Origin: a virus
Lineage: Duplodnaviria; Caudoviricetes
Strand: one strand, 5' to 3'
DNA length: 64,000 nt
Virus record (IMG/VR): IMGVR_UViG_3300050161_000042
Span: 1-64,000 of that record
This document shows positions 2,527-12,645 of this stretch, piece by piece. A program made the position numbers and the translations under genes. Numbering within the stretch: the first letter of the stretch is position 1; each line of letters opens with the position of its first letter. The notes beneath the pieces are model-generated. The model was not told where the DNA came from. It saw only the letters and a list, made by a program, of their open reading frames with translations, and ran no database searches.

Positions 2527-2570
2527 GTGCCAGAATGGCAGGCGGGCCGGGGCAACTGCCATTATGGCAG
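2527..2570. repeat. paired palindromic box 1
   Basis: GTGCCAGAATGGCAG-N14-CTGCCATTATGGCAG. Confidence 0.9.
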
Positions 2571-2666
2571 TTTGCTTTTCAGGTAGGGCCAATCTATAAG
2601 AAGATTGGTTCCGAATACCATTATCCAAAAAAGAAAGAAACCAATGAATTCTATTGCTAGGTTCAT
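2562..2666 (-). CDS. small membrane peptide (34 aa, not in ORF track)
   Basis: MNLAIEFIGFFLFWIMVFGTNLLIDWPYLKSKLP; ATGA overlap with the upstream stop. Confidence 0.45.
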   Translation of the reverse strand: MNLAIEFIGFFLFWIMVFGTNLLIDWPYLKSKLP

Positions 2667-2818
2667 TCTTCAATCGCTTTCTTGTTTTGATTTGCCCTTG
2701 TCTTCATTCTACCTGTGCGGCGATCTGCCATAGCACCAGCCCCAGAACGGTGAGGCTGATGCCCTTTCCTTAAAGGCTTAACCTTCAAGGTTATCTTAGT
2801 TGAACGTAGTTTCTTCAT
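2663..2818 (-). CDS. small basic protein (51 aa, not in ORF track)
   Basis: MKKLRSTKITLKVKPLRKGHQPHRSGAGAMADRRTGRMKTRANQNKKAIEE; ATGA-coupled on both sides. Confidence 0.6.
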   Translation of the reverse strand: MKKLRSTKITLKVKPLRKGHQPHRSGAGAMADRRTGRMKTRANQNKKAIEE

Positions 2819-3057
2819 TCAAGTACGCTTTCTAGTGCGGCAAGTTCCAAAGCATCGGCCAATTCCTTAAGTCCGTTTGCCTCATGTAGAAATTCTTCAT
2901 TCATTGAAAGAACCAAATCAATCATTGCCTCAGCGGCAAGCGAAGTGAAGTAGCTTGCGAGAACGATTGCTTCAACGGCGGTTAGTTGCATAACGCGACC
3001 ATTAGTATTGTTAACGGCGAACACGAAACCAACAGCGGAAAAAACAGTTACTGACAT
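2815..3057 (-). CDS. hypothetical protein (~80 aa)
   Basis: ORF track 2815..3075; ATG at 3057 preceded by purine-rich GAAAGAG is preferred. Confidence 0.7.
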   Translation of the reverse strand: MSVTVFSAVGFVFAVNNTNGRVMQLTAVEAIVLASYFTSLAAEAMIDLVLSMNEEFLHEANGLKELADALELAALESVLE

Positions 3058-3104
3058 TTGAGTCTCTTTCAACAAGTGTGATGGTGAATCCTTATTACTC
3101 CCTA

Positions 3105-3133
3105 ATTATACCATAGGGCAAATCGTATGTCAA
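3105..3133 (-). promoter_or_regulatory. sigma70-type early promoter
   Basis: TTGACA-N17-TATAAT. Confidence 0.85.
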
Positions 3134-3148
3134 GCGTTATTATATCTT

Positions 3149-3192
3149 TTGCCAAAATGGCAGGGCGGTCGGCCCCGCTGCCAAAATGGCAG
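3149..3192. repeat. paired palindromic box 2
   Basis: TTGCCAAAATGGCAG-N14-CTGCCAAAATGGCAG. Confidence 0.9.
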
Positions 3193-3203
3193 TCTCAAGG
3201 CAT

Positions 3204-3230
3204 AAAGAAAGCCCCCAGAAATGGGGGCTT
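3204..3230 (-). terminator. rho-independent terminator
   Basis: Minus strand AAGCCCCC-ATTTCT-GGGGGCTT hairpin followed by a U-rich tract, just after the 3248 stop. Confidence 0.8.
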
Positions 3231-3247
3231 ATGAGATTCAATAGAGC

Positions 3248-4132
3248 CTATGCTACGGCAAGACTGTAGGCCAGAGATTCTGCGATATTGACCGCAGTAT
3301 CATTTGAGGATGCGAGAATCCTATCAAACTGATTCGGAGTACCCTTTCGACTCGCATCATGTTGAACGTAACCCTGTACGGCATTGAACGCTTCCCATGC
3401 CGAGACCGTATAGTTATCATCAATCTGTGGACGACCCGATCTGAGGCGTTCATCCAAGACTCTCTTGAAAATCGCCTCAGTGCGATTGGTGTGAATCGTG
3501 GTCGATCTTCCCTCAGCAGTTGGCTTGCCGTATACCTTATCAAGGAACGATGCCAATTGAACGCTGGTGCTTTCCATACGATCAATCACCTTACCCAAAT
3601 CATCCCAACCATCTTTCAGACCAGAGAATTGATCGATCAATTCGTTCATCTTTCCACGCAGTCCGCTTGTATGGCGAATCGAAACGTATGTGGATTTGAT
3701 CGACTTCATTCGATGCAAATTCAAGCATAGGTCGCGAAAGTAGCCCATATGGACTTTGAACGCACGACCATCATAGCCCGCGAAAATTGTCAAGCGTGGG
3801 AAAATGTTGTCGGCAGTGCCATAGATAGCACGACGCATTTCCTTGGTTGGTGCCAAGTCAACATAGTGCCCTTCCTTGAAGTACGTTTGCACATTGCAAT
3901 CTTCAAACACTGCTTGAGTTGCTTCAACAATCGCGAGAACGTCATCGGTTGTATGTGGAACATAGTCGGATGAAACCGCATTGCCAATGCACTGGCTATT
4001 ATCATCGCGAAACAAACCATAGAATGGCGTTTTCATGTTGTCTGGACCGGCCAACGGGAACTTTTCAACAGTGAAGTTGAAAGCGTCAGCAACAGTGTCA
4101 AGAATCGTTTTGTGTCCGGTGAAAATCTTCAT
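3248..4132 (-). CDS. DUF932-like phage/plasmid protein (294 aa)
   Basis: Motifs YFRDLCLN, SIRHT and C-terminal WEAFNAVQGYVQH; start moved to ATG 4132 because the longer start lies upstream of the 4176-4203 promoter. Confidence 0.75.
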   Translation of the reverse strand: MKIFTGHKTILDTVADAFNFTVEKFPLAGPDNMKTPFYGLFRDDNSQCIGNAVSSDYVPHTTDDVLAIVEATQAVFEDCNVQTYFKEGHYVDLAPTKEMRRAIYGTADNIFPRLTIFAGYDGRAFKVHMGYFRDLCLNLHRMKSIKSTYVSIRHTSGLRGKMNELIDQFSGLKDGWDDLGKVIDRMESTSVQLASFLDKVYGKPTAEGRSTTIHTNRTEAIFKRVLDERLRSGRPQIDDNYTVSAWEAFNAVQGYVQHDASRKGTPNQFDRILASSNDTAVNIAESLAYSLAVA

Positions 4133-4175
4133 TTTTTCGTCTTTCGAAGTGGTGTTAACTACTGGGTACTCTACT

Positions 4176-4203
4176 ATTATACCATCGGGCCGCTGAATGT
4201 CAA
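4176..4203 (-). promoter_or_regulatory. sigma70-type early promoter
   Basis: TTGACA-N16-TATAAT. Confidence 0.8.
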
Positions 4204-4236
4204 GCGTTTGGAGCAATTATTCCCATTTGTTTTCGA

Positions 4237-10929: not shown

Positions 10930-11220
10930 TCATTCGCCATCCCAACCATCACAAAAATCAACTGGAGAATAGCAACCAAGATAATCCTCATAATCATCAG
11001 GCTGATTGTCAAGGTAATCATCGTAACCGGCATAATCGCCGTCTACACCCAATTCGAATTGTGTTTCGAATTCGTCTTGCATGACTTGATGCAATAGCTC
11101 ATCGTCATGCGAGAAACCATCTTGAGGATCTGGACGATAATCGTTTGATTGTGACATTGTGCTAACTTTCGAAGAAACCAAGAAACCAGCCCGAAACGTT
11201 TCGGGCTGGTGAAACGTCAT
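10930..11220 (-). CDS. acidic Asp/Tyr-rich small protein (75-96 aa)
   Basis: ORF track; alternative start ATG 11157. Confidence 0.6.
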   Translation of the reverse strand: MTFHQPETFRAGFLVSSKVSTMSQSNDYRPDPQDGFSHDDELLHQVMQDEFETQFELGVDGDYAGYDDYLDNQPDDYEDYLGCYSPVDFCDGWDGE

Positions 11221-11226
11221 TGTAAA

Positions 11227-11415
11227 CTATCCGCCGATGATTTTCAAGTCTGAAATTTTATCTTCTGCGAACGTTCGGTATTGACCATTGCCAATGAATA
11301 CCTTGATTGATGTTTCGGTAATCGCTTCAACTCGACCCTTGCGAGCGACTAGCTTACCTGTTTTGCTGCAAGGATAGAGCAAAGAAACTAAAGTTTGACC
11401 GGCTACGATTTTCAT
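11227..11415 (-). CDS. small SH3/WYL-like protein (62 aa)
   Basis: LYP...RKGRV...GQYRTFAEDKISDL; paralog of 9810..10019. Confidence 0.7.
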   Translation of the reverse strand: MKIVAGQTLVSLLYPCSKTGKLVARKGRVEAITETSIKVFIGNGQYRTFAEDKISDLKIIGG

Positions 11416-11459
11416 TTGTGAAACCCTTTGAACTAGAAACTAATCACTGAACTACAATA

Positions 11460-11487
11460 ACTATAGCAGATTGATCGGCTATTGCAA
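11460..11487 (-). promoter_or_regulatory. sigma70-type early promoter (variant)
   Basis: TTGCAA-N16-TATAGT. Confidence 0.6.
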
Positions 11488-11551
11488 GTGAAAAGAACAC
11501 AAAAAGGACAAAAGAAAATAAAACAAATAAAATACTTATTGGCAGTTAACT

Positions 11552-11658
11552 ATGTCATATTGGCAGTGCTCAATTATTAGGCAACTGCCATTTTGGCAGC
11601 GGGCCGCCCGCCTGCCATTTTGGCAGTCTGCCTTTCTGACAGACTGCCTTTTTGTCAT
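11552..11658. repeat. box cluster 13 (core pair 11585-11626 plus degenerate boxes)
   Basis: CTGCCATTTTGGCAG-N12-CTGCCATTTTGGCAG; extra boxes at 11552, 11628 and 11644. Confidence 0.9.
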
Positions 11659-11729
11659 CTGCTTCATTTCTGTGCTAGGTAGCCTATAAAGAAAGCACCT
11701 AGCACTAGCACAATAAATAGGCAAGTCAT

Positions 11730-12185
11730 TTAGCCTTCGAATTCCTCCCTCAATTCATTTTCTTCCTCTTGATTGTCTTCGAATTCCTTCAATTCATCGT
11801 AGCTGATTGGATCAAGAATTCCAAGTTTAACAAAATCAGCGTAGCATCGAACGTATGCCGCATCGATTCTCAATTCATCCTCAATTGTAAGAGTCGTTGA
11901 ATACTCAATTGAGTCGCAATGTTCAGCGTATACGGCTAGCCTATTGGCTTTTGCTGTTTGTCGCTCTTGCTTCTGTCTTGCTTCTGTTTGCTCTTGCGTA
12001 TGCGATGCAATTCGTTTTAGCAATGAAGCTGCATTGACTGTTTTGCTCTTGCCAGATCGCATATGCGATGGCAACCATGCATTTGGAATATCCATTGCAC
12101 TTGCCATATCGCGTTCGATTTGTGCCTCATTGATGCCACAATTTGCAAGAGTCTGAGCCGAGAGACCGAATCCTAGTTTAACCAT
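11730..12185 (-). CDS. hypothetical protein (151 aa)
   Basis: ORF track; acidic C-terminus. Confidence 0.7.
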   Translation of the reverse strand: MVKLGFGLSAQTLANCGINEAQIERDMASAMDIPNAWLPSHMRSGKSKTVNAASLLKRIASHTQEQTEARQKQERQTAKANRLAVYAEHCDSIEYSTTLTIEDELRIDAAYVRCYADFVKLGILDPISYDELKEFEDNQEEENELREEFEG

Positions 12186-12235
12186 TTCGACAATCCTAAT
12201 TGTGATCGGCTTGCGAGAAATTCGCTTGCCATGTC

Positions 12236-12439
12236 CTAGATTGTAGCGTCTACCGAATCCATTGCAACCCCTTTTGAGAAAATAAAATCGATTATTTCAA
12301 AATTGGGAAAATGATATGCAACCCATGAATTGAGGTAATGGGAAACGTGATCGGGTAAACTCTTGAAACCACCTAACTCGATTGGGGGGTTAACCTCTAG
12401 AGTCGTTTTTGTCAAGGGGCGAAATATCTTAATTTTCAT
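12236..12439 (-). CDS. hypothetical protein (67 aa)
   Basis: ORF track; GAGAGGA RBS; promoter 12463-12491. Confidence 0.55.
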   Translation of the reverse strand: MKIKIFRPLTKTTLEVNPPIELGGFKSLPDHVSHYLNSWVAYHFPNFEIIDFIFSKGVAMDSVDATI

Positions 12440-12462
12440 AAAATCCTCTCTTTCTTTATGTG

Positions 12463-12491
12463 ATTATACCATAAGCATGTCAATTTGTCAA
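12463..12491 (-). promoter_or_regulatory. sigma70-type early promoter
   Basis: TTGACA-N17-TATAAT. Confidence 0.85.
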
Positions 12492-12510
12492 GTGCCTAGT
12501 TTATAGGCAT

Positions 12511-12645
12511 GTGTCATATAGGCAGTACTGTCATAGTGGCAGTGCCTAATTATTGTGCAACTGCCAAAATGGCAGTCGCCCGCCCGCCTGCCAAAATGGC
12601 AGTCTCCACTGCCATACTAACAGTCCATGTATGCCATATTGGCAG
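12511..12645. repeat. box cluster 14 (core pair 12561-12602 plus four degenerate boxes)
   Basis: CTGCCAAAATGGCAG-N12-CTGCCAAAATGGCAG; extra boxes at 12511, 12528, 12609 and 12631. Confidence 0.9.

Follow-up and report, generated by a model that had tools for sequence, protein, structure and literature searches.

Multi-site repressor operators are familiar from several phages, among them the stoperators of cluster A mycobacteriophages, the C1 operators of P1 and the conserved inverted repeats of phiC31, and activators of the NtrC type use paired upstream sites made of two arm-N3-arm dyads with the core CCA-N3-TGG, about three helical turns apart. In T4-type phages, promoter-early stem-loops (PeSLs) bound the insertions and deletions of gene cassettes, with variable crossover points (PMC2839356, PMC4122927). 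Cluster O mycobacteriophages carry a 17-bp repeat, TGTTCGG-N3-CCGAACA, which is found genome-wide and often inside genes, and whose function and binding protein are not known (PMC4351075). The present analysis concerns a 44-bp element built from two copies of the palindrome CTGCCA-N3-TGGCAG (hereafter the box), which recurs through an island of early genes at positions 2527-12645 of the IMG/VR virus record IMGVR_UViG_3300050161_000042; the first 64,000 nucleotides of this record form the window analysed here. With moderate confidence, the 44-bp element is interpreted as a putative double-stranded DNA operator for two dimers of one protein, which would restrain or insulate the early promoters and would have cassette exchange as a side effect.

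Anatomy, placement and conservation of the 44-bp element

The box was searched as CTGCCA-N3-TGGCAG with at most two mismatches, and dinucleotide-preserving shuffles served as the background. The 64-kb window contains 38 matches, against a mean of 1.66 in the shuffles (sd 1.24, maximum 5), and 35 of them fall within positions 2527-12645; the three beyond the island, at 18789, 38131 and 43194, have two mismatches each and are consistent with chance. A scan of the entire record, which is 88,493 bp long and rated about half complete by CheckV, placed 30 of 30 sites with at most one mismatch inside the same interval, and the reversed control pattern gave no site at all. This search reproduced all 14 pair starts listed in a first-pass annotation made from the letters alone, and extended to the whole record the remark that none had been seen outside the island. 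Rather than being equally frequent across the genome, the motif is island-confined, with 35 boxes where about 1.7 are expected by chance. The geometry given in that annotation also agrees with the start-to-start periods, which are 29 bp in the first 11 pairs (15+14+15 bp) and then 28, 27 and 27 bp, corresponding to spacers of 13, 12 and 12 bp. The composite element thus consists of two invariant 15-bp dyads around a 14-bp spacer that is G+C-rich, in a genome of 38% G+C, and that has a CpG at its middle; the CG is precisely central to the 44-bp element in ten of the eleven window spacers of 14 bp. Seven additional single boxes are present, mostly in two clusters (Table 1).

All genes of the island lie on the minus strand, and the GC skew switches near 14 kb. 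Read along that strand, a unit runs from the end of a gene, with or without a terminator, through a pair that begins 2-20 nt past the gene end or terminator, and across a variable A/T-rich stretch to a sigma-70 promoter. Twelve of the 14 pairs sit 15-80 bp upstream of a near-perfect minus-strand sigma-70 promoter, which bears out the proposed link of the pairs to early promoters; the typical distance of 15-42 bp from the -35 that had been put forward with it holds for ten pairs and fails for those at 69, 80 and 145 bp and for the pair at 11585, where a consensus promoter is absent. Thirteen near-consensus promoters have a pair upstream, and these match TTGACA/TATAAT at 12 of 12 positions in twelve cases and at 11 of 12 in one (8127), with an extended -10 TG in most. 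The early promoters are therefore strong and sigma-70-like, with an A/T-rich upstream region, as are those of PeSLs. The association between pairs and promoters is strong, and it is not obligatory. Helical phasing of the pairs relative to the promoters was considered and set aside: the pooled Rayleigh signal is strong, but it is inflated by repeated orthologous gaps of 23-25 bp, and the phases within the window form two groups.

Strong intrinsic terminators precede three of the 14 pairs, and these three, lying between a terminator and the next promoter, occupy largely untranscribed DNA. Ten of the 14 units have no intrinsic terminator ahead of the next promoter. The terminator scan also flagged a few of the boxes, which are followed by a T-rich tail.

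What is conserved in the element was examined in the window phage together with its box-bearing relatives. Among 615 unique boxes in elements, arm changes are one-sided in 259 cases (174 of them pair-breaking) and compensatory in 6, and base pairing is accordingly not maintained by compensatory substitution. A logo of 134 unique promoter-oriented elements shows 12 invariant arm bases, an A/T-rich downstream flank and a spacer of the form nnnSSS-CG-SSSnnn, with the central CpG present in 84%. The box centre is an A/T triplet, whose sense-strand sequence is AAA in 73-91% of second-lineage elements (see below), and the spacer measures 14 bp in 160 of 167 exact pairs of the relatives, where its G+C averages 70%. 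Because one-sided changes far outnumber compensatory ones, and because three pairs lie downstream of strong terminators, it is the sequence rather than the ability to pair that is conserved, and recognition by a protein as double-stranded DNA, not as a hairpin, would follow from this. Docking of two dimers is suggested by a fixed period of 29 bp, arms that do not vary, a CpG in the middle of the spacer and the missing selection for base pairing; the dimer-of-dimers site proposed in the first-pass annotation thus fits what was found, although we infer from sequence that a protein binds, how many copies of it do so and in which direction it acts.

Table 1. Coordinates of pairs, hubs, single boxes and promoters in the window, and of box loci in Longimicrobiales.
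Feature	Position	Strand	Remarks
Pair 1 (15+14+15)	2527..2570	-	nearest minus-strand promoter (-35) 145 bp off
Pair 2	3149..3192	-	after terminator 3209-3230; 15 bp to -35
Pair 3	4237..4280	-	33 bp to -35; upstream of DUF932 gene
Pair 4	4902..4945	-	after terminator 4960-4989; 36 bp to -35; upstream of gene for 131-aa helix-turn-helix (HTH)-like protein
Pair 5	5821..5864	-	36 bp to -35; upstream of GP88-family gene
Pair 6	6847..6890	-	42 bp to -35; begins 8 nt past end of PRTase-like gene
Pair 7	7451..7494	-	15 bp to -35; upstream of PRTase-like gene
Pair 8	8149..8192	-	21 bp to -35
Pair 9	8785..8828	-	adjoins terminator 8834-8864; 15 bp to -35
Pair 10	9445..9488	-	21 bp to -35; overlapped by end of upstream 60-aa open reading frame (ORF)
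Pair 11	10399..10442	-	22 bp to -35
Pair 12 (13-bp spacer)	10801..10843	-	80 bp to -35; additional box 10852-10866
Hub 1	11552..11642	-	pair 13 (11585-11626, 12-bp spacer); degenerate boxes 11552, 11628; second palindrome 11567-11583; no downstream consensus promoter
Hub 2	12493..12703	-	pair 14 (12561-12602, 12-bp spacer); boxes 12528, 12609, 12631; promoter 69 bp from pair
Hub 2 second palindromes (TGCCTA-N5-TAGGCA type)	12493, 12543, 12687	-	palindrome search
Single box, 1 mismatch	5623..5637	.	within GP88-family gene; box search
Promoters with a pair (first base of -35)	12491, 10720, 10376, 9423, 8769, 8127, 7435, 6804, 5784, 4865, 4203, 3133, 2381	-	promoter set spans 2353..12491
Longimicrobiales box loci	L087:5645-5689; L249:2002-2100; L241, L252, L253		

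The two hubs, which are similar to each other, also contain a second family of palindromes, TGCCTA-N5-TAGGCA, which has the same half-site start as the box and a longer centre. Four copies lie there, at 11567-11583, 12493-12509, 12543-12559 and 12687-12703; the window total of 5 against 2.6 expected is not significant, but the copies are clustered with the boxes. The same palindrome is found in the islands of one box-free relative and of a 146-kb phage (L260:3615-4050). At the opposite end of the island, a near-consensus promoter on the plus strand (2417-2444) points towards pair 1, opposite to the minus-strand genes, and the second box of that pair has a T-rich tail and was flagged as terminator-like (interval 2417-2572); promoter and pair together may yield a short antisense or non-coding transcript. 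To the right of the island, positions 13275-19021 hold plus-strand ORFs with a match to sigma-70 region 2, a ClpP-type protease and an ERCC4-type nuclease domain, and the sigma-like protein may drive later promoters.

Distribution of the element and exchange of cassettes

About 55 IMG/VR contigs, which reach 224 kb in length, contain the exact paired pattern, in a total of 82 stretches. In the relatives, 97 of the 167 exact pairs have a consensus promoter on one side and only that side, and none has one on both. Four complete genomes of a second lineage (150-224 kb, 34-36% G+C) have 12-17 pairs each, which are confined to a single island of 14-20 kb, a few kb from the terminase gene, in the same layout as in the window. 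The terminase of the box-bearing lineage is 50-55% identical to that of the window phage. The closest terminase relatives of the window phage, at 60-70% identity, include three complete genomes of about 174 kb, and the box is absent from them. The genes of the window cassettes are almost never common to the box-bearing lineage; since the boxes are identical while almost all cassette genes differ, the element crosses phage lineages and the genes that it flanks do not. A nucleotide search of public phage records gave no match to the window phage, whose terminase shares only about 27% identity with its counterparts in Bacillus and Microcystis phages.

Several observations in the relatives stand beside this pattern. 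The closest complete relative, which is box-free, has five copies of GTCTCA-N3-TGAGAC in a consensus-promoter island of its own (L182:10881-14960; G001 41880-45936); this sequence has the same 6-3-6 form as the box, and two of the copies are 30 bp apart. Elements of the second lineage (G008, L185-L194) are often followed, before the promoter, by a conserved motif, CAGCAAAT-N4-GTGCCAAA, that is absent from the window. In two box-bearing relatives (G010:C1:20162-23191; G014:C1:78697-81720), the terminase match is split within a single frame of about 1030 aa, which points to an insertion of about 350 aa, for instance an intein.

The box also occurs in phages without a terminase match to the window phage. 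A complete 83-kb phage has six tandem boxes with a period of about 24 bp (L259:4110-4256), followed by an A/T-rich stretch and located beside a zinc-ribbon protein and a Toprim-DnaB primase-helicase; this array looks like an origin or the operator of a replication operon. The 146-kb phage mentioned above, which likewise has no terminase match, contains a hub with both types of palindrome.

Outside of phages, with each prokaryotic species represented by one genome, the paired pattern turned up almost exclusively in the Gemmatimonadota, order Longimicrobiales, and the box is present in 13 of 151 sampled genomes of that phylum. Three complete Longimicrobiales chromosomes (about 70% G+C) have 11-20 exact boxes each, always with AAA/TTT at the centre, and these boxes form tandem groups with spacings of 30-32, 42, 63, 73 or 94 bp, which are whole helical turns. 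The groups lie upstream of dnaK, where a sigma-54-type promoter follows, of clpB and of a uvrA-like gene, as well as upstream of amidohydrolases, transporters and an operon ending in a sigma-54 activator. One such activator operon has boxes upstream in one genome and not in another, and neither the dnaK neighbourhood nor the sigma-54 activator genes identified the Longimicrobiales regulator. A sigma-54-type promoter (GG-N10-GC) was found beside none of the 16 exact boxes of the window genome, and beside about one per genome in the second lineage. As the box is identical in Longimicrobiales and in unrelated phages, a DNA-binding specificity for it would exist in cells and in several phage groups, and this identity offers a concrete route towards the family of the binding protein.

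Exchange of cassettes was examined in the second lineage, as the window phage has no close box-bearing relative. When three related complete genomes are compared across their islands, elements bound the insertions and deletions of cassettes, and in the clearest case a single element in one genome corresponds in another to two elements with an additional cassette of about 1.4 kb between them, homology picking up again precisely at the border of the element. Of 262 homology-block ends, 34 lie within an element, against 11.5 +/- 4.1 in 2000 randomisations, an enrichment of about three-fold to which BLAST extension into conserved islands could contribute. Breakpoints thus coincide with boxes when cassette order is compared across related contigs, as the first-pass annotation had proposed for the case of recombination. 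Where two elements are alike in one flank only, the whole spacer still resembles that of the partner: at a threshold of 0.75, the two spacer halves score 0.83 and 0.72 in left-only pairs and 0.64 and 0.73 in right-only pairs, over a baseline of about 0.35. Since the spacer goes with either flank, crossovers would occur in either box and not at a fixed centre, which argues against a dedicated site-specific recombinase. Motif-bounded cassette indels with variable crossover, as described for PeSLs, are therefore present in the second lineage, and the recombination option of the first-pass annotation stands as homology-driven exchange of the PeSL kind and falls as exchange at a fixed crossover point. 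Its further suggestion of a DNA-entry signal found no support in the analysis.

A putative operator and the competing explanations

In the favoured explanation, two dimers of one sequence-specific DNA-binding protein would dock on each 44-bp element in a fixed arrangement; nearly every early transcription unit has such an element at its upstream end. The bound protein would restrain or insulate the promoters, through a joint shut-off of the early set, a roadblock to read-through from upstream, or both. The invariant boxes and conserved promoters would in addition supply short stretches of identity that phage recombination could use to insert, delete and swap promoter-gene cassettes. Repression or insulation is favoured because perfect-consensus promoters need no activator and because ten of the 14 units lack a terminator before the next promoter; activation by the box-binding protein is less likely.

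The protein itself was sought in Pfam and PHROGs scans of the island proteins and of 44 lineage-specific proteins. In the island, no classical DNA-binding protein was detected by these scans besides a weak MarR/HTH signal in the 131-aa product (4377-4772), which was ruled out as a shared binder, its sole weak homologue being in a box-free relative. Phylogenetic profiling with a second-lineage genome (G008) as reference returned 106 lineage-specific ORFs, too many for use, and with the window genome as reference it returned no more than a PRTase-like enzyme, an acidic protein of 151 aa and a handful of very small ORFs. The 151-aa protein was rejected as a candidate, its family being also present in one box-free relative. 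No evident regulator was among the proteins specific to the box-bearing lineage, where a sigma-factor-like protein, RuvB, IMP dehydrogenase and an actin-like protein were recognised, and the proteins adjoining box clusters in three other phages show no homology among themselves or to the window phage. The half of the genome that would hold replication and regulation genes is missing from the record, and the binder could be encoded by the phage or, equally, by the host.

Several points weigh against the operator reading. No binder was found, in that no HTH-type protein is common to the window phage and the second lineage and at the same time absent from box-free relatives. Consensus promoters without a pair occur at 13281, 10083, 6493 and 1558, and there is a pair without a promoter at 11585. 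From pair to -35 the distance is variable and keeps to no single helical phase in the window, which is unusual for a contact-dependent regulator, and the polar centre triplet of the second lineage is not explained by a symmetric dimer. The direction of regulation, finally, has the promoter-strength argument as its sole basis.

A variant of this scheme, to which we assign a low probability, has the phage boxes read by a host transcription factor of the type that recognises the identical box before dnaK, clpB and other Longimicrobiales genes; unrelated phage lineages would then have their entire early promoter set wired or insulated through a stress-responsive host regulator, or about 28 high-affinity sites per genome copy would titrate that regulator away from its own targets in the host. 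Slightly less probable is that the pairs are a mere PeSL-like boundary repeat, which persists with mobile cassettes and their homologous exchange and has no dedicated binder. The near-complete difference in cassette content between phages with identical boxes, the element-bounded indels, the roughly three-fold enrichment of block ends and a crossover that is not fixed, as for PeSLs (PMC2839356), would all be expected of such a repeat. Hitch-hiking alone would nevertheless be insufficient to keep twelve bases and an exact 14-bp spacer invariant across terminases of about 52% identity while spacer sequence and flanks drift, and the same box recurs in unrelated settings, on Longimicrobiales chromosomes and in the six-box array of an unrelated phage. 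That array, with an A/T-rich stretch and the gene of a primase-helicase as neighbours, together with the 4-5 boxes in each of the two window hubs, is the attraction of a reading as replication or DNA-organising sites, that is, iterons or a centromere-like array for an initiator or partition-type protein. We consider this unlikely, as 14 regular pairs, one per transcription unit and beside its promoter, are unlike an origin or a centromere, and the island has no replication genes.

The two remaining alternatives are both very improbable. In one, the pairs would be sites for cassette shuffling by a site-specific recombinase, as in an integron or invertase system, with crossover at the central CpG; the length of 44 bp, the two-fold symmetry and the conserved central CG recall serine-recombinase sites, and one junction has a chimeric spacer. 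The resemblance of both spacer halves to one-flank partners (0.64-0.83 against the baseline) and the crossovers in either box run counter to this, each half-site is itself palindromic, which is unusual for recombinase sites, and no recombinase turned up near the arrays among the island and lineage-specific proteins scanned, in a record about half complete and with no recombinase-specific search. Hairpins of RNA or single-stranded DNA, acting in 3'-end stabilisation or processing, in termination, or as extruded promoters of the N4 type, could form from each box as a 6-bp stem with a 3-nt loop, and the polarity of the centre, with A on the sense strand, the start of most pairs 2-13 nt past a stop codon with no terminator between, and the few boxes with a T-rich tail would agree with such a role. 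Against it stand the preponderance of one-sided over compensatory arm changes, the three pairs that lie downstream of strong intrinsic terminators, spacers that are G+C-rich and not U-rich, and the ordinary sigma-70 promoters behind the pairs.

If, as in the favoured operator reading, one protein reads all sites, it would act as a single switch over the host-takeover genes of widespread large uncultured phages, and in metagenomic contigs the element would flag early transcription units. In addition, the sites illustrate how promoter-gene cassettes without assigned function pass between lineages whose terminases are about half identical.

Comparison with described systems

Multi-site repressor operators share with the element the many copies of one short site spread over transcription units, through which one protein silences a gene set. 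They differ in having an identified repressor, in belonging to temperate phages and in consisting of single, often asymmetric sites; a repressor or lysogeny module is not known for the window phage. The sites of NtrC-type activators are paired arm-N3-arm dyads with a CCA-N3-TGG core, as are the elements described here, and the Longimicrobiales boxes lie upstream of the sigma-54-type dnaK promoter. In the window, however, the promoters are sigma-70 consensus promoters with no adjoining sigma-54-type promoter, and the 29-bp spacing does not amount to whole helical turns.

The repeat of the cluster O mycobacteriophages, with which the first-pass annotation had compared the boxes, has inverted invariant arms, a 3-bp A/T centre that is strand-biased relative to transcription, and tens of copies per genome. 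The comparison is accurate in form, though the cluster O repeat, too, has no known function (PMC4351075); its arms are 7 bp long and of another sequence, and its sites are single and not tied to promoters, whereas the boxes form fixed pairs beside promoters. A literature search found no paper containing the box sequence. The claim of an undescribed system accordingly holds for the box sequence within the searchable literature and not for the general kind of element, which is known: the element is new at the level of sequence, and its general kind has been described before.

PeSLs and the element have much in common, as both are repeated composite motifs that bound small early genes without assigned function in a hypervariable region, both include a strong promoter of the sigma-70 type that is A/T-rich in its upstream part, and both delimit indels between related phages. 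In a PeSL, the promoter is combined with a stable G/C stem-loop, variable in position, that functions as a terminator, whereas in the present element two 15-bp dyads of invariant sequence, set rigidly as a pair, take this place. These dyads are weak, with 6-bp arms, and show no selection for pairing; intrinsic terminators are separate from them and present at 3 of the 14 pairs, and the phages are not T4-type. The PeSL is thus the closest described concept, with the promoter part, the position and the role as a recombination seam in common, and with the terminator stem-loop replaced by an operator-like double dyad.

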